Shown: positions 7,783 to 43,836 of the stretch, piece after piece
Layout of the letters: each line of letters starts with the position of its first letter
Numbering within the stretch: the stretch's first letter is position 1
IMG/VR virus record: IMGVR_UViG_3300025683_000003
Length of the DNA stretch: 64,000 nucleotides
Reading direction: 5' to 3' (one strand)
DNA from: a virus
Position numbers and translations under genes: made by a program
The notes under the pieces: model-generated
What the model was told of the DNA's origin: nothing
Seen by the model: the letters and a program-made list of their open reading frames with translations, nothing else
Databases searched by the model: none

Positions 7783-8217
7783 CTACAAGCTTATTTTGAT
7801 TGTGTGAAATGTTTTAGTTTCTATAGGGTCCCATACTACTTCTTTTTTAGTTGTAGTAAATATCCACATAAACTTATCTTCCACATCAATATATCTAGCA
7901 GAGTATTTTGTAGTGTACTCTTTTGGGGTAATTTCTACTTTATATCCAAAGTCTCTAAACTTATTTAAAAGATCTTCCCTACAGTATTTTGACTCTTGTC
8001 CATATGGAGTAGGAGAAAACGAGTGTTGAATCAGTCCGTTTGAATCTGTGTATTCCTTAACCTCTCTAGATCTCTCAAAAGGTCCTGTTTCAAAAGATCC
8101 ATATCTTTCAATGTGCCAGTAAATAGTTTCTACTGCACTTTCAAATTTAGAGGCTTCTTCTTTTGCCTTCTCTTCTTCTTTCTTCTTACGCATCTCATCT
8201 GCTGTTAATATTTTCAT
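7783..8217 (-). CDS. Hypothetical protein
   Basis: 144 aa; coupled to the upstream ORF. Confidence 0.6.
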   Translation of the reverse strand: MKILTADEMRKKKEEEKAKEEASKFESAVETIYWHIERYGSFETGPFERSREVKEYTDSNGLIQHSFSPTPYGQESKYCREDLLNKFRDFGYKVEITPKEYTTKYSARYIDVEDKFMWIFTTTKKEVVWDPIETKTFHTIKISL

Positions 8218-8423
8218 AACTCACCTTCAAATGTACTTGTATATACAGTCTCTCCGTTACCTTCATCATCATAATCTTCGATCACTCGCTCTGGAGGCTG
8301 CATTCCAGCGTTCTCAATTTCCTGTAGAACGTCAGATAATTCACTCTCGCTAAACTGGTAGTCTTGTGGTACTCGGCTATTTAAAATTTCTCCAAGCTTC
8401 GTAATCATCTCACTTCGTTTCAT
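8214..8423 (-). CDS. Hypothetical protein (MKRSEM family)
   Basis: MKRSEM...IENAGMQPP; paralog of 9329..9700. Confidence 0.65.
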   Translation of the reverse strand: MKRSEMITKLGEILNSRVPQDYQFSESELSDVLQEIENAGMQPPERVIEDYDDEGNGETVYTSTFEGEL

Positions 8424-8430
8424 AATTCAC

Positions 8431-8787
8431 CTATTTCTTTGGCACATTTTTACAAGGAATTTTATAATATGTTTGAACTTCCTCAACAGAAATATATCCT
8501 TCTTGCCATATTTTAATAGGGTTACTAAAAGCATCTTCATGATCTACTAGTGTAAAAACGCGAAGATCTGCAAGAATATCTTTGTCTTTTTTGTATTTCC
8601 CTAATTTATAGTAATTGTTACTATCACCATTATAATAGCAAGTATTAATATTTAAAGCAATATTTAATTGCCTCTTCAAGTCAATTACCTCTGCCTTAAG
8701 TTGTTGGTTTTCAATGACGTAGTTACCTTCTGTTTTGACGTTACACCCTACCATAAATACGAAGCTTAACAAAATTAATATCTTCAT
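8431..8787 (-). CDS. Putative lipoprotein
   Basis: MKILILLSFVFMVG-C lipobox. Confidence 0.6.
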   Translation of the reverse strand: MKILILLSFVFMVGCNVKTEGNYVIENQQLKAEVIDLKRQLNIALNINTCYYNGDSNNYYKLGKYKKDKDILADLRVFTLVDHEDAFSNPIKIWQEGYISVEEVQTYYKIPCKNVPKK

Positions 8788-8927
8788 ACAAACAATCTCC
8801 TCTGTTCATTAAACTCTTCTATTGTGATTCTATACCCCTCATAAAACATAATTCCAGTCCATAAATCTTTTGGCCATTTATAATCATGATCGTGCAATGC
8901 TTTGCGTATAGCTGAGGTTTTGTCCAT
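8784..8927 (-). CDS. Small hypothetical protein (47 aa, below the track cutoff)
   Basis: MDKTSAIRK...RLFV; TAATG and ATGA coupling. Confidence 0.55.
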   Translation of the reverse strand: MDKTSAIRKALHDHDYKWPKDLWTGIMFYEGYRITIEEFNEQRRLFV

Positions 8928-9325
8928 TAAAAATCCTCCAAGCAAGAGATAAAGGCTTCATGAACTACTTTATGAACTAAATTTTCATCTTTTTTATCAA
9001 ACTCTTTGCACTCTGCGTCTGCTTCAGTAGCTTTGGCAAACTTTAAGAAAGGTAAATGAGTCCATCTGTCTTGATTCTTATTGTAGACAGCTATACAATA
9101 GTATTTATCCTCCACAAGTTATTCCTTTTCGTATGGGATCATAATTGTCTCAACGTTTCTTTGTCGAATATGTTGTTCAATTACAGATCTGGCTGCATCT
9201 TCGGACGTACATATATAATATAGATATATCTTATGCCATCCTGTTAACCAAAGAAGTATATTTTTGTACCTATACTCTGGGTGGTACATATATCCAGTTT
9301 TTCTAATTCTATACTCTAATTCCAT
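8927..9325 (-). CDS. Two small hypothetical ORFs (8927..9115, 9119..9325)
   Basis: Tight packing on the coding strand. Confidence 0.55.
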
Positions 9326-9328
9326 TAA

Positions 9329-9700
9329 CTACCTCCACTTTAACCCTACCTTTTTTAAAACTTCTATAGCCTCATCACTTGGATTTTGCACATCGAAGAA
9401 GACAAATTCTCCTGTGTCTGGGTCTGTAATATGCATATATTCTGGTACTCCAAAATTTGCCTGTGACTTTGAAATTAAGGATATAAATTCTTCATCCGAC
9501 AAACCATCTTCCGCATCCCATCCGTTATCCATCATACCAAGCTGATTTAACTTTGTCAATGGTGGAAGCATCCCTTGTTCTTCTATTTTAGTCAATAAGA
9601 AGTCGCTAAACTCCCCATCGTCTAAATACGATAAAGGGCCATTGCCGTATCGCTCTGCAAAATAAGTTTCAATTAGTCGTACCATTTCGCTACGTTTCAT
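9329..9700 (-). CDS. Hypothetical protein (MKRSEM family)
   Basis: MKRSEM...IEEQGMLPP. Confidence 0.65.
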   Translation of the reverse strand: MKRSEMVRLIETYFAERYGNGPLSYLDDGEFSDFLLTKIEEQGMLPPLTKLNQLGMMDNGWDAEDGLSDEEFISLISKSQANFGVPEYMHITDPDTGEFVFFDVQNPSDEAIEVLKKVGLKWR

Positions 9701-32563: not shown

Positions 32564-33559
32564 CTATACCTTAATCTTGCCAACATCTTTAATTTTAAAG
32601 CTGATGTGTGTAAATATTTCGTGTAAATTTACTTCTTCTGCACCATTAAATGCATCTAAAGCTTCCTGATATGTGCAATCTCCAAAATCGTCTCTATGTG
32701 CTGGTACATTTATTTTGTAAAACTTTGCATCTGGAACTATTTTTTTATATGCATTAACTAAATTGGGAATTTTATCGTCAGCATCTCTATCTAAGGCTAG
32801 GTATATATTTTTAACGCCATACTCTGCTATAACCTCAAATTGCCCTAAGCTAATCTCTTTACCCATTGTGGCCACAAAATGCTTGGCCAGCTCAAATTTC
32901 ATAGCAGATATGGGTCCTTCGGCAATAATGGCCATCTTGTTTGAGTTATTTTTTAGATTATCAACAAACATCACAGCCCTATCTCGCCATCTGCCAGGCC
33001 AATTTTTCATTCTAAACGCCTTATCGACCTTATCAATTGCACGACCTTGATAGCCAATCAATCTATCTCCATCAAATACTGGGAATATCACCCTACGGTC
33101 TCCAGGGCTATATGCAATATTATACTTTATCGTATCAGGGATGTGTATTCCTCGACCATTTAAATACGACATACCATCTACAGCTTTTTCATCTGGAAAG
33201 AAGTATGTGTCATGGGGTAAAATTGCATCTGGCACTGCTTCTACCTTTTTTACTAACTCGACGTCATCAAAATTAACGTCAATATCTTCTCCAAGTTGAG
33301 TTTGAAAGCCGAGAATCTCATCTTTCACTTGCTTAATGGAAATACCAGCTATTAGGCTTAGGGCATAGAAGGGTTTTGAACCTTTCTTAGGGCAATTCTC
33401 AAGCTCTTGACGAAAACATACAGTGCGTCCGTCTTTCTTCTGAACGTACAGCTTTGAGTCTCCATTGCATACTGGACAATCAAACTGGTAACTCCTATTA
33501 TTTTCATTATTAGGAGTTATTTTATGTTTTATGAAGAAGTCTTTAAGTTGTGCTTCCAC
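32564..33559 (-). CDS. DNA primase (Zn-binding domain + TOPRIM)
   Basis: CPVC...CF...C; RVIFPV..G..IGYQGR; AEG; ALDRD. Adjacent to the helicase. Confidence 0.85.
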   Translation of the reverse strand: MEAQLKDFFIKHKITPNNENNRSYQFDCPVCNGDSKLYVQKKDGRTVCFRQELENCPKKGSKPFYALSLIAGISIKQVKDEILGFQTQLGEDIDVNFDDVELVKKVEAVPDAILPHDTYFFPDEKAVDGMSYLNGRGIHIPDTIKYNIAYSPGDRRVIFPVFDGDRLIGYQGRAIDKVDKAFRMKNWPGRWRDRAVMFVDNLKNNSNKMAIIAEGPISAMKFELAKHFVATMGKEISLGQFEVIAEYGVKNIYLALDRDADDKIPNLVNAYKKIVPDAKFYKINVPAHRDDFGDCTYQEALDAFNGAEEVNLHEIFTHISFKIKDVGKIKV

Positions 33560-34010
33560 TATACCTCTTTAACCCACTCAACAATTTTGTTAACCCATTC
33601 TTACGAATCTTACTATACATCTTAGTATTTTCACTTCGGAACTGATTCAAAGTCTTATATTGGGATATTACCTCAGACATCTGGTTAATGTCAACACCTC
33701 TATCATATTTCTTATTCATGTGAGATGTGACTTCTTTTAGCCAACCTTTTTTAACGCATAGTTGGTAGTCATATTGGTTTTCTTGTCTCCAGGCACCAAT
33801 ATCAGTATATTGAGATGATTTGGCGAGGATTGTGTCTATAGTGACACTGCGCTTTTTGGTAACACCAGATTCTTCGATTATTTGCTTTGCAACACCATAT
33901 TTGTAAGCCGCATTATATGCAGCCCTACTCTTGTACATTACATCAGACAGTTTACTATGCTTTTTAAATTCGGCTAAAATGGTATGGTATGTCCACTTTT
34001 TATCTATCAT
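33543..34010 (-). CDS. Protein of three ~50-aa repeats of the homing-endonuclease DNA-binding type, with no nuclease domain
   Basis: Repeat consensus w/vT..i...k.Y.t..ef....p..Y....k.Gwl..v..hm. Confidence 0.65.
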   Translation of the reverse strand: MIDKKWTYHTILAEFKKHSKLSDVMYKSRAAYNAAYKYGVAKQIIEESGVTKKRSVTIDTILAKSSQYTDIGAWRQENQYDYQLCVKKGWLKEVTSHMNKKYDRGVDINQMSEVISQYKTLNQFRSENTKMYSKIRKNGLTKLLSGLKRYSGSTT

Positions 34011-35830
34011 TTATTCCTCTTCGGATACGGCTTGATTAGTGGAGTGATTGCAGCCTCTAAATCTCTTTTTTCGTATTTATTACCCTTAAAGTAGAAGTAC
34101 CGTCCTTTACTTTTTTGCTTTACAAATAATACGTCTGGATATTTTTTAAGTATATCCTCTTTTCTCTGAGATCCAACCTTAGCTCGTATTGATCGTGAAC
34201 CGTAAAGCTTGCCATTAATGACAAAGCCGCTAATATTTTTATTTTCTTTCATTGAACCTACGTATTTAAAATTACATGCTTGATAGATTGTTCCAATTTC
34301 ACCAGCCAAAGGATCAACTGTGGCAGTAATTACTTTGTATTGCTCTGGCAAAAGGTTAATAGATTTGGCAATAAGGTGACTTGCAGCCCAATTTGGAGCC
34401 CAATGGACACAAGCTCCACGAGATAGTAATATCATTTTTCCAGTGTAGCCGTACTTATCCCAAACTCCGAGATTTTCAGAATATTCAGGACTGAATACTG
34501 TGACCCCAGCTAAGTGCTCACCAAAAAATAGCCCATAACAGTGTAGCACTACGGCTGGCATGCTTTGAAGCCATTCGTATTTCATGATAATCTTTCTTGC
34601 CTCTTTTGCAGGTATAGGTTTTACAACAGGGTTTGAAAAGTCATTAATTGGTGCCAGCTCATGACTATATTTATCCCTGAGGATTTTTTGATACGCCTTC
34701 ATTTCAATATTAAGGCTGCTATTGGAATTAATAAAATCAACTATCTGCGATAGAGTATGACTTTTAAGCGCAGTCCATAGAGCTTCTTCGATAAACAGTA
34801 TCTTGATGCCTAAGCTTTTAAAATAGTCGATTTTCATTTTTCTATGATGACTCTTACTATCATAACCGCGACTCTGCATAAGCTTGTTGCTATGCCAATA
34901 TGTTCCATCAAATTCGATGCCTAATTTTAAATCTGGCATATAAACATCCAGCTCAAATCTTCTTCCCCTCTCTCTTTTATACCTAAAGTGAGGCAAGACT
35001 TTTATTCCTAATCCTTTCACAAAATCTCTAACTTCCACCTCACCTTTTGACTCTCCAGCTATCCTTGGAAGAATCTTAGCTACTTCTTCAGAAACTTTGT
35101 GTTTTATTTCTGCACTCTTAACGCCTCTATTTGCTCTATAGAAGTCTGATCTAGACCTATATTTTTTAGCCTCTTCTAAAATGCTTTCTGCATCCCATTT
35201 TTTATTATGTTTTCTTTCTAAATCTGATGTTAGGTGTAAATTTCTACTTCTCAGTAGATACCCGTATAGCGACGGATTATTTTTCGTCAATTCTGAAATT
35301 GATGTGAATTTGCTTATAGATTCTTTCAAACTATCTTCAGAAATTTTCTGGCGTTGTCTTACTAGATGAGCACTAACCTCTTCTAGCCATCCATTTCTGT
35401 TACAGGTGGATACGTCTTGTGGGCAATCTTTACTCCACTCATAATATGTAGTGTATTTTAATGCGGTAGCAATAACCTCTTCTTTAGAAATATCCTTACG
35501 CTTTTTTTGTACTTGTATTCCCGACAGTTCACAAAGCTCTTCCTTCCATCCATGGTGGAAGGCTATATCTATAGCTTTTCTACTGTTTTTTACTAATTCT
35601 GTCATTGTGGAATATTTTTTAAACTCCTCGAGACACTTATCAAACGTCCAAACAATTCTGCCTTCCATATGTGCAGTAAAATCTTCCATTAGGCCGTTTT
35701 TAGACGTCCATCGGTACTCATTTGGGCAAGCTTTTAACCATTCAGACTTCACCAAATAAGAAAGCGCCTCCTTGCGGACGCGCTCTTTTCTGTCTTCAAA
35801 ATTTTCTCTTTTTTGGCGTTCTTTTTTCAT
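34007..35830 (-). CDS. Fusion of five ~50-aa repeats, a Vsr/PD-(D/E)xK-like endonuclease and a Mom-like GNAT DNA-modification domain
   Basis: SKGEVEV...ELDVYMPDLKLGIEFDGTYWH nuclease (~35056-34720); LSRGAC...ASHLIAKS...VDPLAGEIGTIYQACNFKYVG Mom-like domain (34702-34007). Confidence 0.75.
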   Translation of the reverse strand: MKKERQKRENFEDRKERVRKEALSYLVKSEWLKACPNEYRWTSKNGLMEDFTAHMEGRIVWTFDKCLEEFKKYSTMTELVKNSRKAIDIAFHHGWKEELCELSGIQVQKKRKDISKEEVIATALKYTTYYEWSKDCPQDVSTCNRNGWLEEVSAHLVRQRQKISEDSLKESISKFTSISELTKNNPSLYGYLLRSRNLHLTSDLERKHNKKWDAESILEEAKKYRSRSDFYRANRGVKSAEIKHKVSEEVAKILPRIAGESKGEVEVRDFVKGLGIKVLPHFRYKRERGRRFELDVYMPDLKLGIEFDGTYWHSNKLMQSRGYDSKSHHRKMKIDYFKSLGIKILFIEEALWTALKSHTLSQIVDFINSNSSLNIEMKAYQKILRDKYSHELAPINDFSNPVVKPIPAKEARKIIMKYEWLQSMPAVVLHCYGLFFGEHLAGVTVFSPEYSENLGVWDKYGYTGKMILLSRGACVHWAPNWAASHLIAKSINLLPEQYKVITATVDPLAGEIGTIYQACNFKYVGSMKENKNISGFVINGKLYGSRSIRAKVGSQRKEDILKKYPDVLFVKQKSKGRYFYFKGNKYEKRDLEAAITPLIKPYPKRNK

Positions 35831-35834
35831 ATAT

Positions 35835-36860
35835 CTAAGTTATATCATTCTCCGCAATCTTTTTCAATAGTTTTTGCTGGAGATCAGGGTCGGACGAAAT
35901 TGCGTTTGCGAAATTGTCGAAACCGACCCATTTCTGACCGTCTACGACATAACTGGTATTATTAGGTCTTTCAACAGCACCCATATTATTTGCTAGCTCT
36001 GCAATCTCAATATGAGCATTTACAAGCCCCTCAGTATAAGATAAGTGGACTTCAGCCGATCTATTTTGAGGCCCTAATGAGTTTTCTTCCATTTTGACGC
36101 GAATACTATGTCCAACCTGGATAGCATTACCGCTACCATCAAGTCGATCACTATCAAATACTTTACTATCTTTTGAATCAATCTTTTGACATAAAATCCA
36201 ATACTCTGTAAAAAATTTTAAGGCGCTCCCTCCTGGGATCGTATACGGCTTGTACTTTGCTGAGTTAGGGTCCATATTGGCACGAGTGTGCTGGATCATA
36301 ATATTATACAAATTGTATTTACGAATGACTGGCAAGATAGCCTTCATTGCTCGCTTAAGGTAAGCTGAGGCATCTCCAATAATATGGTTAGACAAAGATT
36401 CAGCGCCTGCCTCTTTTGGATAACTAACACCCTCTAAAGAGTCGATGATGATCATTTTGATGGGAGCCCCTTCCTGAAGCATTGCGTGCACATCCGTTGC
36501 GATAAAATCAAAAATCTCTTTAGGGTCATTGGTCGCATAGCTAATAATTCGACTCGTATCAATTCCAAACACTTTTGCCCATGTAGGTACAGTCTTTCTC
36601 ATCTCTGTATCAAAATGAAGCACAATAGCTTCTGGATCTTCACGATGCAATGCACCAGCTAAAGCCATTGAGAATAGGGTCTTGCCGGATTTTGCTGGCC
36701 CATAAATTAATGCCGAATATCCAGCTTTTAAACCTTGCGCCTTACCAAAGATGTAGTTAAATGCTGGGCTAGGACTCTTTAGAACATCCTCTTTTTTACC
36801 CTCAAAATTAACCACTCCACCGTTCTTTTTTAACATTTTTATCCATTTTTCACTACTCAT
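35835..36860 (-). CDS. recA: RecA/UvsX-like recombinase
   Basis: YGPAKSGKT, IIIDSL, PGGSALKF. Confidence 0.9.
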   Translation of the reverse strand: MSSEKWIKMLKKNGGVVNFEGKKEDVLKSPSPAFNYIFGKAQGLKAGYSALIYGPAKSGKTLFSMALAGALHREDPEAIVLHFDTEMRKTVPTWAKVFGIDTSRIISYATNDPKEIFDFIATDVHAMLQEGAPIKMIIIDSLEGVSYPKEAGAESLSNHIIGDASAYLKRAMKAILPVIRKYNLYNIMIQHTRANMDPNSAKYKPYTIPGGSALKFFTEYWILCQKIDSKDSKVFDSDRLDGSGNAIQVGHSIRVKMEENSLGPQNRSAEVHLSYTEGLVNAHIEIAELANNMGAVERPNNTSYVVDGQKWVGFDNFANAISSDPDLQQKLLKKIAENDIT

Positions 36861-36868
36861 ATTATCTC

Positions 36869-37384
36869 CTATCCAGCATAATTCTTTTCGCTAGACAATC
36901 TATTGTTAATTTCCAAAATCTTCTTTGTTCCATGATAAGCATACTCAACTGCCTTCATTCGGGAACGTAAATAATCAGCCGTAACCTTAAGACCTGACAC
37001 TCTAGACCTAGAAGCACTTACTTCGCGATCTAATGCTAAAGCCGCAGCTCTAGTGTCTGCTGATGACTTTACGTTTTTAAAGCTAAGAACCTTCTCAACG
37101 CGATCTAGTAAGGCTTCAGCCTCAGTTTCTTCAAGGGCTTGCTCTGCATCATACAGTTCAAGCTCAACCAGACTAATTGCTCGTGCAATATGTAATAATC
37201 CAGAGTTAAATTCCATAATAAGCTCACCAGCTGTAATTGCTGAGGCTCTAGCCATTTCAGGAATCCTGTTCTCGATCTGAACAATACGAGTTAAATCAAT
37301 CGAAATGGCAGGGAGACCAGGTCTCCCCCTTGGAATGATTAACATATTGTTTTGTTCTTGAAAATCACTACCATTTTCCATCAT
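36869..37384 (-). CDS. Helical protein, possibly a UvsY-like recombination mediator
   Basis: Coiled-coil character; located between RecA and SSB. Confidence 0.4.
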   Translation of the reverse strand: MMENGSDFQEQNNMLIIPRGRPGLPAISIDLTRIVQIENRIPEMARASAITAGELIMEFNSGLLHIARAISLVELELYDAEQALEETEAEALLDRVEKVLSFKNVKSSADTRAAALALDREVSASRSRVSGLKVTADYLRSRMKAVEYAYHGTKKILEINNRLSSEKNYAG

Positions 37385-38414: not shown

Positions 38415-39179
38415 CTATTTTTTGTTTGTCTTTTTGTTTTGTTTTTTAGCTTCTTCTTTAAAATTCATTAATGCTTCAATCACTTCATTGGCATCCGTAT
38501 CTTTAGACACTTTTGTGCCAATTTTTGCCGTTTCGGTGATGATGGCAACCTGCTTACCAAGTGATTTAAACATCTCCAAATCCTCTTCATTTGCATTTCC
38601 AATGAATACAATTTTAACATCAGAGTCAGTGTTGGCCGTAATCTTTTCTCTGATAAGCTTTGCTGTGTAGATATTTTTAAGATCTGTCCCAAAGGTACGA
38701 TTAAAGATTGATGACATCTTCTCAACAGCCTTAGATGCAGTTTCCATTGAGCCAAAATCTGAAGCTTGGCCACTAATTTTTGGAATACTAAGGGCGTTGA
38801 TATCTTCTGCAAGTTTATACAGTAAGTTATTCATTATAAAAATTGTATTACTGTCAAATCGGTATGGAGGTCTTTGTGATCCAAAGATGTCGCCAAAGAA
38901 CTTCTTTTCTAATGCCAAAGCATCAACCAGCGCAGCTTCTGGGCCTAAATTACGTAACGCTTCAACGATCTGCCCTGTAATTGAAACTTCTTTTGTAGCA
39001 ATAAGAATGCGTACATTATTTAATGTCTCTTCATAAATGGCCTGCTCAATGACAGGAATTTCTTCCTTGGCTGCACGTTTTGCGCCCTCCATTGATGTGC
39101 GTGAATTTGGATTCCACTCACTAAGATCCTTTTTTGCTAGTTCCTTTAGATTTGCTAATCTTTCTTTGAGCTTTTTCAT
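38415..39179 (-). CDS. Hypothetical protein
   Basis: Probable start MKKLKE at 39179 (AAGGA SD), overlapping the dnaE tail. Confidence 0.6.
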   Translation of the reverse strand: MKKLKERLANLKELAKKDLSEWNPNSRTSMEGAKRAAKEEIPVIEQAIYEETLNNVRILIATKEVSITGQIVEALRNLGPEAALVDALALEKKFFGDIFGSQRPPYRFDSNTIFIMNNLLYKLAEDINALSIPKISGQASDFGSMETASKAVEKMSSIFNRTFGTDLKNIYTAKLIREKITANTDSDVKIVFIGNANEEDLEMFKSLGKQVAIITETAKIGTKVSKDTDANEVIEALMNFKEEAKKQNKKTNKK

Positions 39180-42100
39180 GTTTTTCCTTTTCTTTGCGCT
39201 CTTCAGCCGCATCTTTTAAAAAATTTATATTTTCAATTGGCAACAACTGTTTTACAACAATTGGAGCGCCATCGTCAGATTTTTTCGATATCACAAACAA
39301 GCATATACCATCTTCTATGCTTTTGTCAAGTCCATGGTTATCTTTACCCCAATCTGGAAATTTTATAAACTCATAAGCTTTATCTCCAATCTCTACAGTC
39401 ATGATCATCATCTTTTTCTTTTTATTATCGTAAGCCTTCTCTTCCATTGATGAAATGAAACCAACCACAGTTCCGTCTATGTAGTACCCTTCATCAATGG
39501 ATTGTTGAAGATAGTCAGGAGTTATGTGTAATTTTTGTCCTAAGTTTGCACCTTCAAACATTAGTACACCCTGCTCTCCTTCAATTAACACCTCTCTGTT
39601 CACCAGGAAAGGAACTACAATATTTTCAAGATTGTCAAAGTACACTTTATATACCGATTTCATCAATAAATATTCTTTAATAGGTGTTAGATTTCTATAC
39701 TCTTCAGGAACTGTCTCTGGATTTTTTTTACCTAAAACATCAGCCCTAACATTTAAGTATTCCTGCATTTTTTCAATATCATTCATACCTTCTTTAAAAA
39801 ATCTATCCAGAGTGCCAGAAAGAATAAGTTTGAACATGACACCTCTATTGAGGGCTGTTCTCTCTAGGATATCTCTTAGCGATGTGAATGGTCTAAACTC
39901 AAGTATTTGTGAGATTGCAGATGTCCCAACACCGTTAATAAAATTAATTGGGGCTAAAATCTTTTCCTGGTCTCCATCTTCTACAATCTGGAATTGATCT
40001 GTAGACAGGTTGATGTCAGGCATTTTTACGACATTACAAACTCTTGGCCACAATTTAATAAGATCTTCCTTAGATGCATTAGTTAATACTGCTGTCCACC
40101 ATTCAATTGGGAAATAAAGCTTTAAAAATCCACAGGCTCTGGCTACATAACTGTACGAAATTGCATGTGATTTATTGAAACTGTACTTACCAGATGCTTT
40201 TAGTTGCTCAACTAATGAGTTTACCTGATCTTCACTCCAACCCTTATCTAAAAGATTTTCTTTCACTTTGTGTAATAGTTTAATTAAGACATCGCCAGAT
40301 TTTTTAGAGATGGCTTTTCTAAATTGATTGGTTTCGGGCATTGTTAGTCCACCAAGCTCATGAACAATCCTCATTGATTGCTCTTGGAAAACTATAACCC
40401 CAACCGTACTTTCGATAATTGGCTTCATATCTTCATGTATATACTTAACATACTGCCTATTGTTCCATCTAAATAGGAACATGTCAGCCATTGTCATGCC
40501 TGGCTCTTCAGATGGAGCATCCATGGCTCCTGGACGAAATACAGATGTTAGGATTGCAGCCTCTTGGACGCTCTGAGGCTTCATTGATCTTAGTCCAGGT
40601 CGAATTGTTTCTGTATGAAACTGAAATACAGTGGTGGGATCTTCGGTAATTGCATTCCACACCTCAGGGTCGTCTGGTATTTTCCATGGGTCAATATCGT
40701 ATCCATGCCTTTTTTTAACTAAATTTAAAGCTACACGGATATCTTCTAAGGTACTGAGCCCCAAGATATCGTATTTAACTCCGCCAGATTTTTCTACCCA
40801 TTTTGGCATTAATTGTGTGGTTGGCTCGTCCGATACTTTCATCATCGGGATAAATTCTTGAACTGGAATATCTGATATGATTACGCCAGCAGCATGACGT
40901 CCCATTTGTCTTGGAAGTTTAGTCATTTTCATTAAAAAATCATAATGCTGTGGATTATTATTTAAATAATATTTAAATGAATCGTTTGAATCAATAAATC
41001 CTTCGTGATATATGCCGTCAGCATCTGTATGTCCATTTAAAAAATCTAGCTCATTAAGACCTTGTCCTGTATGTGGTATTAGCTTACATATCTGCTCAGT
41101 CTCTTTTCGAACTTCACCATACAAGTATCTATCTACATCTTTTAAAATAGATTTTGTTTTAAAGGTGGAGGAGATTCCTAGGTAGGCAAACGAATCGCCA
41201 TACTCTGCCTTTAACATATCGACCACTTTACTTCTATCACTAAAGTCGGAGTCGATATCGGCTAATCCGTCAACAATACGAGTCGCATCAAAAAATCTTT
41301 CAAACGATAAGTCTTCAATAATTGGATCTACAGCTGTGATGCCTAAAGCATAGGCTAATAGTGAGCCTGCTGCCGAACCACGGCCTGGGCCAGTTGTTAC
41401 ATCGTTTACCTTACACCAGTCAAATACCTTATTTAAAAATAACATATATCTAGCTAAATTTGTATGCCCATTGTAGTACAGGGCATCAATCTCTCTCATT
41501 AAACGATCAAAATAGATTTCATTTCCTAAGTCGATAATTTTCTTATTTTGTACTAATTCCATTGTATAATTCAGAAGCTCATCGTCTGTAGATAGCTCTT
41601 GTTTTTCAATAACAATATTCCCAGACGGCTGTGTAATACTCTTGTCAATAACTATCTTTGGCAATCTAAATTCAAACTTTGGCTCAAAACTTTTAAAATT
41701 GCCAAGCATGTCATAAGAATTATCTACCCACTTCTCAAACATATTCTCGTTTACTTCTTCTGGATGAAGACGCAACATTTCTTCATAAATCCACTCAGTA
41801 GAATGTAGGCAATTGGCGTCGGACATTTTCCATGTCCCTTTGCCATCCTTGTTAATTCTACAATTGTGAACAATAAAACCTTCAGCTACAAAATTGTTAT
41901 CATTACCAACTTGTAGATCATATACTGGTACTTGATTTATTATATTTTTTTTAACATAACAGATTCTTCTATAGAATCCTTCGGAAGTCTCTATGGTATG
42001 GTAATTTATACGATTTGTGACTCGCACATAATCGTATTTTTCGCCTATAATTTCACAAAATTTATTTGAATAAAAAGTGTTGAAGTATATTGAGTATGTT

Positions 42101-43836
42101 GGCTTAGTGTAACATTTAACTCCTCCACGAATAGTCTCTGTGCCACTCCGATTGTCATTTTTAAATATTAAACCCCTAGAAAGGGCCCACAAGCTCATAA
42201 TCCCAATTGGCTGAGGAGCGCTAAGTACGATTGAGAGGTAGTCTTCATTCTTCCTGCCATCAGCATCATAGAGACCGTACACAAACATATCCTGCTGTTT
42301 TTTTGTTAAACTAAAAAAAATATCAATAGGTATATTTTTTAAATCATTGTTATAAAAATTTTTCTTTAGCCATCTAGAAAAATGCCCTCCACCAATACTG
42401 TAAACGTCTATGCCTTTATGTCCAGCTTTATTTTTAGACACACGCAAGTCTCCCAGATTGGCGGCTAAACTTTTTAAATACCCTACAGCTTTTACATTTT
42501 TAGTGTCGATAACAAAAACTGTATCTTTACCATTTTTGCTATACCCATCCCCTAAAAATAATCCTAACATGTACGCATCAGTGTCGCTTATTTTAGTTTT
42601 TATTGGGTATAATCTAGTACTGCCATCTAAATTATTTCTCACAGATGATCTGTTATCATCCTCTAAGTTGTTAATTAAAAAATCTGAAAAATCAAAATAC
42701 GCTCCATTCCCGCTTGGCAAGTTTACCTTCGGAGTATAGACGTAATGATCCAAGGTCAGATCTTTGGCCTGAACCCATTGCGGTTCTTCGGATTCAAAAT
42801 CTACTCTTCTTGATTTAAACGACTTTTTTTTCATTTTTTTTGCCAATACAAGATGATCTTCCGTCATCTCGACAAAATTATTCTTTCGGCTCATTGATAT
42901 CTGAACTTTATTTTTTTTAGAATATAGCCCTCTTGTCGCTTCAACTAGATTCATTTTTCCTGAGTTAGATAAGACTCTGTCTCCGACCTTTACGTCCTCG
43001 ATTTTTTTCAGACCGTTGTCCGTTGTAATAATAGTGCCTGCCGACAAGCAGTCTTGCAACATCTTATCTTCTTCTTTTGCATAGTGGGCATCTTCGGATA
43101 TAATCACAGGTACATTGTATTTTTTAGATAGATGAAAAATCCATTTGTTGACATCAACTTGTAACTTTCCTGATGGACAACATTCTGTTGGTGGGATTGG
43201 ATCAAATGTTTTAGTTTTTCCATTCCAATTTTTAGAGACTTCGTATGGGAGTATCTCTGCAAAGAATTTACCAGGGCCAGCAATGTCTTTTAGTCTTTTA
43301 AAGTATCTCTCACTTACTTCTTTACGATTGTTCATAAAGTTCTTACCCACTGGACTAATCATACATCCAGAAGTAAGTGTGACCTTACCAGACATGCTGC
43401 GTAATTCATCCCACGTCCACAATGGTTTTAACTCTCCACCTTTCCAAATAGATCTATCGTATGATGTTTTACTAATCTTCGACCCATCAAGATAGGAGTT
43501 AAAATCACTAAAATGCATTGTTAAATGGTAATATTCGGCTTTTACAGTACCTTTTTCGTTAGGTATTAGAGATGGATCATCGTGATCAGGCTGTAAATAT
43601 ATCTCGATGCCTGGAATAATCGTAATGTTTATGTTTTCTTTTTTCTTTAATTCTTTAGAAAAGTCGTGCGCTTCTAAAAGGGCAGACATCATGCCATGGT
43701 CTGTAATAGCTATCGCTGTACGACCAAAATCTTTAGCAGCGCTGCGTATAAAGTCTTGGGTGGAGTTACCTGAGTCAAGAGACCCAGATACGTGATTATG
43801 AGGGCCTACAATTGTTTTATTATTAAATCTAGACAA
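39121..43836 (-). CDS. dnaE: DNA polymerase III alpha subunit (family C) with one intein
   Basis: TTG start with an AGGAGG SD; PHP motifs HNH/TDHG/GIE/EDAHY; GRGSAAGS; DIDSD; HAAGV; KYDILGL; FQEQ; FNKSHA. Confidence 0.95.
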   Translation of the reverse strand: MSRFNNKTIVGPHNHVSGSLDSGNSTQDFIRSAAKDFGRTAIAITDHGMMSALLEAHDFSKELKKKENINITIIPGIEIYLQPDHDDPSLIPNEKGTVKAEYYHLTMHFSDFNSYLDGSKISKTSYDRSIWKGGELKPLWTWDELRSMSGKVTLTSGCMISPVGKNFMNNRKEVSERYFKRLKDIAGPGKFFAEILPYEVSKNWNGKTKTFDPIPPTECCPSGKLQVDVNKWIFHLSKKYNVPVIISEDAHYAKEEDKMLQDCLSAGTIITTDNGLKKIEDVKVGDRVLSNSGKMNLVEATRGLYSKKNKVQISMSRKNNFVEMTEDHLVLAKKMKKKSFKSRRVDFESEEPQWVQAKDLTLDHYVYTPKVNLPSGNGAYFDFSDFLINNLEDDNRSSVRNNLDGSTRLYPIKTKISDTDAYMLGLFLGDGYSKNGKDTVFVIDTKNVKAVGYLKSLAANLGDLRVSKNKAGHKGIDVYSIGGGHFSRWLKKNFYNNDLKNIPIDIFFSLTKKQQDMFVYGLYDADGRKNEDYLSIVLSAPQPIGIMSLWALSRGLIFKNDNRSGTETIRGGVKCYTKPTYSIYFNTFYSNKFCEIIGEKYDYVRVTNRINYHTIETSEGFYRRICYVKKNIINQVPVYDLQVGNDNNFVAEGFIVHNCRINKDGKGTWKMSDANCLHSTEWIYEEMLRLHPEEVNENMFEKWVDNSYDMLGNFKSFEPKFEFRLPKIVIDKSITQPSGNIVIEKQELSTDDELLNYTMELVQNKKIIDLGNEIYFDRLMREIDALYYNGHTNLARYMLFLNKVFDWCKVNDVTTGPGRGSAAGSLLAYALGITAVDPIIEDLSFERFFDATRIVDGLADIDSDFSDRSKVVDMLKAEYGDSFAYLGISSTFKTKSILKDVDRYLYGEVRKETEQICKLIPHTGQGLNELDFLNGHTDADGIYHEGFIDSNDSFKYYLNNNPQHYDFLMKMTKLPRQMGRHAAGVIISDIPVQEFIPMMKVSDEPTTQLMPKWVEKSGGVKYDILGLSTLEDIRVALNLVKKRHGYDIDPWKIPDDPEVWNAITEDPTTVFQFHTETIRPGLRSMKPQSVQEAAILTSVFRPGAMDAPSEEPGMTMADMFLFRWNNRQYVKYIHEDMKPIIESTVGVIVFQEQSMRIVHELGGLTMPETNQFRKAISKKSGDVLIKLLHKVKENLLDKGWSEDQVNSLVEQLKASGKYSFNKSHAISYSYVARACGFLKLYFPIEWWTAVLTNASKEDLIKLWPRVCNVVKMPDINLSTDQFQIVEDGDQEKILAPINFINGVGTSAISQILEFRPFTSLRDILERTALNRGVMFKLILSGTLDRFFKEGMNDIEKMQEYLNVRADVLGKKNPETVPEEYRNLTPIKEYLLMKSVYKVYFDNLENIVVPFLVNREVLIEGEQGVLMFEGANLGQKLHITPDYLQQSIDEGYYIDGTVVGFISSMEEKAYDNKKKKMMIMTVEIGDKAYEFIKFPDWGKDNHGLDKSIEDGICLFVISKKSDDGAPIVVKQLLPIENINFLKDAAEERKEKEKHEKAQRKISKSKGTSKKGS
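41863..43050 (-). mobile_element. Intein (396 aa) with a LAGLIDADG homing endonuclease, inside the DnaE PHP domain
   Basis: Starts C-LSAGT (codon 43050-43048), ends VYDLQV..NNFVAEGFIVHN, followed by a +1 Cys; LGLFLGDG and YGLYDADG motifs. Confidence 0.93.

Follow-up and report, generated by a model that had tools for sequence, protein, structure and literature searches.

The subject of this report is a three-part gene in IMG/VR virus record IMGVR_UViG_3300025683_000003, a phage of sludge whose longest assembled contig measures 168 kb and of which a stretch of 64,000 nucleotides, referred to here as the window, was analysed. Between a RecA-like recombinase gene and a primase gene of this phage lies an open reading frame (ORF) of 607 amino acids (aa) that, as far as its sequence can tell, is one intact gene specifying three parts in a single polypeptide: five helical repeats of ~50 aa, then a Vsr-like nuclease of the EDxHD type, and finally a GNAT domain of the Mom family (Table 1). 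These parts had been recognized, and the ORF located, in a first-pass annotation made from the letters alone, which did not state that the gene is read from the minus strand. It also placed the gene between primase and RecA genes, and both flanks are as it described; what it did not mention is a second ORF, of 155 aa, that intervenes between the gene and the primase. The PHROG families matched by the 607-aa ORF are of homing-endonuclease and Mom-like types.

Table 1. Features of the recA-primase region of the window (positions count from the first letter of the window; aa, residues of the 607-aa ORF)
Feature	Positions	Strand	Remarks
607-aa ORF P0001: repeats, EDxHD/Vsr-like nuclease and Mom domain	34007..35830	minus	ATG 35830; stop TGA 34009-34007
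Five ~50-aa helical repeats (aa ~9-262), presumed DNA-binding array	35045..35806	minus	in-register alignment, phrog_20046
Vsr-like/EDxHD PD-(D/E)xK nuclease (aa 263-376)	34703..35044	minus	E293, D295, E306, D308, H313, K333
Full-length Mom-family GNAT domain (aa 377-607)	34010..34702	minus	PF25680, phrog_1384, 8bv8
Alternative start TTG 35755 (aa 26)	35753..35773	minus	AAGGAGG 35773-35767, 11 nt upstream
155-aa ORF, three copies of the same repeat only	33543..34010	minus	ATG overlaps stop of the 607-aa ORF (ATGA)
RecA-like recombinase gene, upstream flank of the insert	35835..36860	minus	Pfam RecA, E 2e-16
Toprim primase gene, downstream flank of the insert	32564..33559	minus	weak Toprim/DNAG_N Pfam matches

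The first-pass annotation had asked whether a stop codon before 34702 might have been lost in assembly. Three sequencing runs, each belonging to a different study, yield contigs that are free of substitutions and indels over positions 33400-36000, with a depth of 11-21; two of the runs sampled activated sludge (2016) and the third an anaerobic digester (2022), and one of the three may be the source of the window, the others being independent. A relative of the protein, P0005, is 506 aa long, 39% identical over 83% of the query, and carries the same three parts in one frame; its gene lies at 8001-9521 of a Logan contig (L004; run ERR1356702, 1-9716) and directly follows the recA gene there. The P0005 gene holds eight in-frame TAGs and none of the other stop codons. 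L004 reads TAG as sense: neighbouring genes on this contig cannot be read intact with table 11, and the contig is flagged 'with_TAG=Q'. In the window, 20 of the 49 long ORFs end with TAG as a stop, so that two related phages of sludge follow different genetic codes. The presence of in-frame TAGs, and of no other stops, in L004 means that the fused frame has survived a switch in the code. Judged from the contigs and from this relative, the fused frame is real and not an assembly artefact.

It could still be argued that the ORF is not one protein, either because an error removed a stop or because the Mom part is made separately from the methionine codon at 34702 (Met377). An ATG does stand exactly at the domain boundary, as the first-pass annotation had pointed out, and the genes are tightly packed, with the downstream ORF translationally coupled to this one through ATGA. 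Against this stand the three identical assemblies and the relative at 39% identity, in which the frame is open throughout and the boundary lacks a Met. A Shine-Dalgarno core is also missing before Met377; such cores precede 31 of the 49 long ORFs, compared with a background of 10%. The main ATG at 35830, however, also lacks a well-spaced Shine-Dalgarno sequence, and for that reason the ribosome-binding-site case against internal initiation is weak. We found no support in the sequence for two separate products and regard this explanation as very unlikely.

The choice of start codon, ATG 35830 or TTG 35755, is ambiguous from the sequence. A database copy of the protein (P0004, 582 aa) has been called from the TTG, which has a Shine-Dalgarno-like stretch before it (Table 1). 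We prefer the long form of 607 aa because its ATG lies only 4 nt past the stop of the RecA-like gene and because P0005 likewise starts, with MKK, immediately after its own recA gene. No RNA run was present among the public runs that carry the sequence, and a megablast search of 50,697 phage records with positions 33000-37000 returned no close DNA relatives. In base composition the insert is indistinguishable from its flanks, the GC fraction being 0.355-0.378 in the parts of the insert and 0.37-0.40 in the flanking genes.

In the C-terminal domain, residues 402-604 match the Pfam family PF25680 over profile positions 3-202 of 202, with 80.8 bits (cut-off 27.1; E 1.4e-22), and phrog_1384 is matched with E 6e-28. 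In an AlphaFold model of residues 255-607, built from an alignment of 122 sequences (predicted local distance difference score, pLDDT, 91.7; predicted template-modelling score, pTM, 0.82), the top fold match in the PDB is Mom of phage Mu (8bv8, E 5e-11, template-modelling (TM) score 0.66-0.69 by target). The first-pass annotation had allowed that this domain might turn out not to be Mom/GNAT-like, and the matches to PF25680 and 8bv8 settle the matter in favour of its original call. Met377 aligns with residue 1 of a stand-alone Mom of 242 aa (P0125), with 54% identity; overall the domain is 47-62% identical to Moms that stand alone or are fused to methyltransferases and ~20% identical to the corresponding domains of Hef-type proteins, the group of phage enzymes discussed below. 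The helix-turn-helix (HTH)-like insertion of Mom (Mu residues ~175-209), which Hef-type proteins lack, is present, as is the C-terminal PYPKR tail.

Whether this domain is likely to be an enzyme can be approached through what is known of Mu Mom, which transfers glycine from Gly-tRNA to the N6 of adenine in double-stranded DNA, which depends on R111, S124, D149 and R151, which is strongly reduced in activity by mutation of H58, Y59 or Y159, and which needs the HTH-like insertion (Silva et al. 2026, PMC13219725). In the domain described here the equivalents of R111 (R471), S124 (S484), D149 (D506) and Y159 (Y516) are kept, and R151 is replaced by Leu508 and H58/Y59 by Glu419/Trp420. These replacements may mean that the chemistry or the donor is different, or that the domain is inactive. 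Hef-type domains retain the Mu-like His and the D-x-R motif. One could thus envision a domain that has lost catalysis and contributes target recognition only, as a structural or DNA-binding (base-flipping) module: GNAT folds have often been reused, and a residue essential in Mu and two important ones have been lost. Such a module would hardly be expected to keep the equivalents of R111, S124, D149 and Y159 together with the HTH-like insertion, and the replacements (Leu508, Glu419 and Trp420, with Glu511) are themselves conserved across a clade of Mom domains, Glu419 and Glu511 each occurring in 59 of its 60 members, many of which stand alone and are presumably functional. We therefore consider a dead module improbable; as read from these conserved positions, the domain is probably catalytically active, perhaps differing from Mu Mom in its donor or chemistry.

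The nuclease is recognized by its motifs ELDVY (aa 293-297) and GIEFDGTYWH (aa 304-313); the Pfam families MTES_1575, Vsr and PvuRts1I_N match this region, all below threshold. In the model described above it superimposes on the catalytic domain of I-Bth0305I (3r3p_B), with a TM score of 0.74 by target, 22% identity, a root-mean-square deviation of 3.7 A over 111 columns and E 3e-3, and it thus shows a Vsr-like fold, as the first-pass annotation had read from the motifs. Across 60 Hef-like proteins, D295, E306, H313 and K333 are invariant and E293 occurs in 59; all of these are kept here. The EDxHD motif can be traced in part, through E293, D295, D308 and H313, which are present here and conserved in the Hef-like proteins, with some uncertainty in the placement of its last Asp, for which the candidate D324 is Asp in 24 of the 60 proteins, next to the invariance of K333.

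The five N-terminal repeats had been noticed in the first-pass annotation. An in-register alignment can be made of all five and of the three repeats of the 155-aa ORF; the two arrays find each other by tblastn with E 6e-18, and both match phrog_20046. An AlphaFold model of the array, from an alignment of 22 related arrays, consists of five four-helix modules that have high local confidence (pLDDT 89.7) and a mutual arrangement that is not fixed (pTM 0.42). The same ~50-aa repeat is found in many copies beside MTES_1575/Vsr-like nucleases, GIY-YIG nucleases and superfamily 2 helicases, and a nucleic-acid-binding module therefore fits; from these partner domains we infer that the array binds DNA. 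The 155-aa ORF overlaps the start of the primase gene and belongs to the insert, since it is absent from the relatives in which recA abuts the primase gene. It may be what is left of an older homing gene, or else a separate protein that acts as a DNA-binding partner or as an immunity factor.

The case for mobility comes from comparison of the same junction in related phages. A search of viral contigs with the RecA-like protein gathered four relatives with 57-66% identity, and across L004 and the other related contigs (L004-L008) the identity of this protein is 57-68%. In three of them (L005, L006 and L008) the stop of recA is followed after 29-139 bases by the start of the primase gene, with nothing between, and the primases of the relatives in which the gene directly follows recA are 45-48% identical to that of the window. 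The junction of L007 is occupied by a 469-aa Hef-like ORF, which combines four or five helix-turn-helix repeats with the nuclease motifs seen in the 607-aa ORF and with a Mom-like domain that is shortened. The window and L004 have the repeat-nuclease-Mom gene at this place, to which the window adds the 155-aa repeat ORF. Empty, fused and Hef-type alleles are thus found at one junction, i.e., the sporadic presence that marks mobile genes, and presence, absence and replacement at a single intergenic spot is the behaviour of a free-standing homing endonuclease gene. Further Hef-like copies, in frames of 498 and 533 aa, lie elsewhere on the related contigs. Taking the architecture, the conserved residues and this polymorphism together, we favour, with a probability of about 0.7, the interpretation that the gene is a free-standing homing-type endonuclease of the EDxHD lineage that is fused to a complete Mom GNAT domain and resides as a mobile insert between the recA-like and primase genes.

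Several observations pull the other way. The gene occupies the same site in L004, in which the protein is only 39% identical, a stability greater than that of many homing genes, which a useful gene that has been retained would explain as well. The repeat array had no fold match in the PDB at E <= 0.001, the ATG at 35830 lacks a well-spaced Shine-Dalgarno sequence, as noted above, and the substitutions at the R151 and H58/Y59 equivalents may point to a different chemistry or donor or to an inactive domain.

How the two halves came together can be reconstructed in part. Residues 1-376 match the whole length of repeat-plus-restriction-endonuclease (REase) proteins of 341-345 aa that have no Mom domain, and residues 377-607 match whole stand-alone Mom proteins; by these two matches, the protein looks like two otherwise independent genes joined head to tail, with the start codon of the Mom gene retained. 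The first-pass annotation was right in proposing that a homing-type endonuclease and Mom are fused end to end. It had gone on to suggest that a homing endonuclease had invaded the 5' end of a mom gene in frame, and as an event at this site, in a mom gene resident between recA and the primase gene, that suggestion found no support. The coincidence of Met377 with residue 1 of stand-alone Moms, and of residue 376 with the end of a complete repeat+REase protein, does indicate that two separate genes were once joined head to tail. The three insert-free contigs, however, proceed from recA directly to the primase gene without any mom, which is why we treat the fused gene as a whole as the inserted unit, and the fourth has a different, Hef-like gene at this place. 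Unfused homologues, which the annotation had thought worth seeking in relatives, do exist as metagenomic repeat+REase and stand-alone Mom proteins; on the related contigs no stand-alone mom was seen, all Mom-family matches there lying in Hef-like frames of 474-533 aa. With no stand-alone mom at the junction or on these contigs, the join probably predates arrival at the junction, and a landing in a resident mom gene has little to recommend it.

Phylogenetic analysis gave a less uniform picture of the relationship to the Hef-type proteins. In the unconstrained tree of Mom domains, the domain described here nests among stand-alone Moms (95% support) and the Hef-type domains form a clade of their own (99%). 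One clade uniting it with the Hef-type domains was nevertheless compatible with an approximately unbiased test (p 0.68), and the tree constrained in this way had the higher score. The nuclease tree, with 84 columns only, does not separate nearness to Hef-type proteins from nearness to the Mom-less repeat+REase proteins. On a more speculative reading, the form with a full Mom may preserve the ancestral state of the shortened Hef-type domain. Fusions of Mom domains to other partners are also common. Among the 120 homologues listed from the same Mom clade, most are fused to GIY-YIG modules that follow the Mom domain and some to N6/N4 DNA methylases. The Mom-GIY-YIG fusions (e.g., P0014 and P0017) comprise hundreds of metagenomic proteins of ~485 aa in which an N-terminal Mom domain is followed by an entire GIY-YIG homing endonuclease that has NUMOD motifs, and a full-text search of the literature for 'Mom-like' together with 'GIY-YIG' found no report that pairs them. 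One such fusion (L013:5001-6458) lies directly after the gp23 major capsid gene on a 340-kb T4-like contig. That Mom is joined to two unrelated nuclease folds of the homing type argues for a functional link rather than an accident, and if the single origin of the nuclease-fused Mom and Hef-type domains were true, the join of Mom with GIY-YIG would be a second invention of the same trick.

Known relatives place the gene among enzymes of the EDxHD/Hef kind. A tblastn search of phage genomes matched g171 of Yersinia phage phiR1-37 (annotated 'homing endonuclease') and JC221_166 ('Hef-like homing endonuclease'), both colinear from the nuclease into the Mom/GNAT domain, and g171 passes the Pfam threshold for Mom with 41.3 bits. 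A search with the L007 protein found 242 proteins; 79 of the 120 matches listed have the whole nuclease+GNAT module of ~280 aa at the C-terminus. The DNA-binding N-termini of these Hef-like homologues are very varied, and many of the proteins have precomputed matches to PF25680 or PF00583. As judged from these matches, a nuclease followed by a Mom-like domain is the normal layout of a widespread Hef-like family. The gene described here resembles the Hef and Hef-like genes of T4-related and jumbo phages in having, in the same order, a variable DNA-binding N-terminus, a Vsr-like nuclease and a Mom-like GNAT domain, in standing free between conserved phage genes, and in the conservation of the nuclease residues and of the R, S, D and Y residues of the GNAT domain. 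It differs in that the Hef-type GNAT is shortened, without ~20 aa of the HTH-like insertion and without the PYPKR tail, whereas the ORF here has a full Mom of 231 aa; its nuclease aligns with the ~280-aa module that characterizes the Hef-like subfamily, and its full-length GNAT sets it apart. Hef-type enzymes have been placed in the EDxHD family (Taylor et al. 2011, PMC3239194). F-CphI, considered as a possible Hef relative, was set aside, as the paper on it reports an enzyme of the Endo VII type, which has no relation to the fold seen here.

Other known systems share parts of the design. I-Bth0305I (3r3p) likewise has a modular DNA-binding region N-terminal to its nuclease and is likewise tied to a phage recA gene, but it is intron-encoded, has NUMOD/HTH motifs rather than 50-aa repeats, and ends after the nuclease without a Mom domain. 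Mom of phage Mu has the GNAT fold with the Mom-specific HTH-like insertion, and the equivalents of its R111, S124, D149 and Y159 are kept here; at ~25% identity it differs in standing alone and in being under Com control, with no nuclease attached (8bv8, Silva et al. 2026, PMC13219725; Karambelkar et al. 2020, PMC7261163). The repeat+REase proteins without Mom (P0276, P0283 and P0271) share the repeat and the nuclease and end near the position of residue ~376; P0271 has two nuclease units. Type IIG-like single-chain enzymes offer an analogy of logic only, since the modifying part here is a GNAT domain and a Pfam search found no methyltransferase domain in the 607-aa protein. Closest in concept are the Mom-REase fusions of jumbo phages noted by Iyer, Anantharaman, Krishnan, Burroughs & Aravind (2021, PMC7824862), which also combine in a phage protein a Mom domain and a DNase of the restriction-endonuclease fold; the present case comes from a sludge phage not declared to be jumbo, and here the gene is seen as a polymorphic insert at one junction.

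If the interpretation as a mobile homing-type endonuclease is correct, the five helical modules would bind a long DNA site, the nuclease would cut the empty recA/primase region of co-infecting relatives, and the gene would be copied in by recombinational repair. The Mom domain would most likely modify adenines in DNA and so make the DNA of the carrier refractory to its own nuclease, to restriction by the host, or to both. From this one can derive the tentative idea that the protein is a self-immunising homing endonuclease, in which one repeat array would bring the nuclease and an active Mom domain to the same long site; the momylated adenine in the target would then protect the carrier, and unmodified incoming relatives would be cut. 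Such a protein would unite restriction and modification in one mobile chain, with tRNA-dependent chemistry as its basis.

A different emphasis, on conflict rather than homing, would have Mom mark the adenines of the phage and the nuclease degrade unmarked host or superinfecting DNA, in the manner of restriction-modification. For the jumbo-phage fusions this has been published as a prediction, momylation shielding the phage and the nuclease attacking host or superinfecting DNA (Iyer et al. 2021, PMC7824862). The architecture and the idea of modifying self and cutting others are thus both already in print as computational predictions. The conservation of both active sites, in 60 Hef-like proteins and in the Mom clade to which this domain belongs, would be expected of such a weapon, and it would accommodate the hundreds of metagenomic proteins in which Mom is fused to GIY-YIG nucleases or to N6/N4 methylases, as well as the retention of the gene at the same site in the 39%-identical relative. 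A long modular DNA-binding array, however, suggests rare and specific sites rather than bulk degradation, the presence, absence and replacement of genes at the junction bear the signature of homing genes, and Hef itself was reportedly published as a homing endonuclease (Sandegren, Nord & Sjoberg 2005). We consider a conflict weapon rather unlikely as the main function, and it may coexist with homing. The possibility raised in the first-pass annotation, of a module in one polypeptide that modifies self and cuts non-self, is in this sense compatible with homing, and is not a new idea.

The interest of the gene depends to a considerable extent on its Mom domain. Few selfish genes of large phages are commoner than those of the Hef-like kind, and a Mom domain that is unshortened and near to stand-alone enzymes makes this gene a good candidate in which to look for DNA modification, for the nature of the adduct, and for its control of the linked nuclease. 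A positive answer on these points would explain how free-standing homing endonucleases spare their own genome and would show that the tRNA-dependent chemistry of Mom, solved recently, has a second use in biology; with an inactive Mom, the gene would just be another homing endonuclease gene.

The genes around the insert have other irregularities of their own. The DNA polymerase III alpha gene of the window (39121-43836, minus strand, 1571 aa) contains an intein, with Hint and Intein_splicing matches at aa 262-658 and two LAGLIDADG-like motifs; it constitutes a second mobile element in the replication module, and L004 has an intein too. In L007 the match to a DnaB-like helicase is split by ~750 bp (L007:10647-11395), the extra sequence being perhaps an intein, an intron or a gene that has been inserted, and in L008 a 229-aa ORF that matches no Pfam family (L008:8118-8807) lies between the primase and helicase genes, which are adjacent in the window. 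These two interruptions are further polymorphic inserts in the same block of genes. Another viral contig of this group has two neighbouring genes (L009:5-1195 and L009:1426-2772, both on the minus strand): a Hef-like gene that shares the 50-aa repeats, and an ORF of 396 aa whose N-terminal sequence resembles that of TnpB/IS605-OrfB-type proteins.

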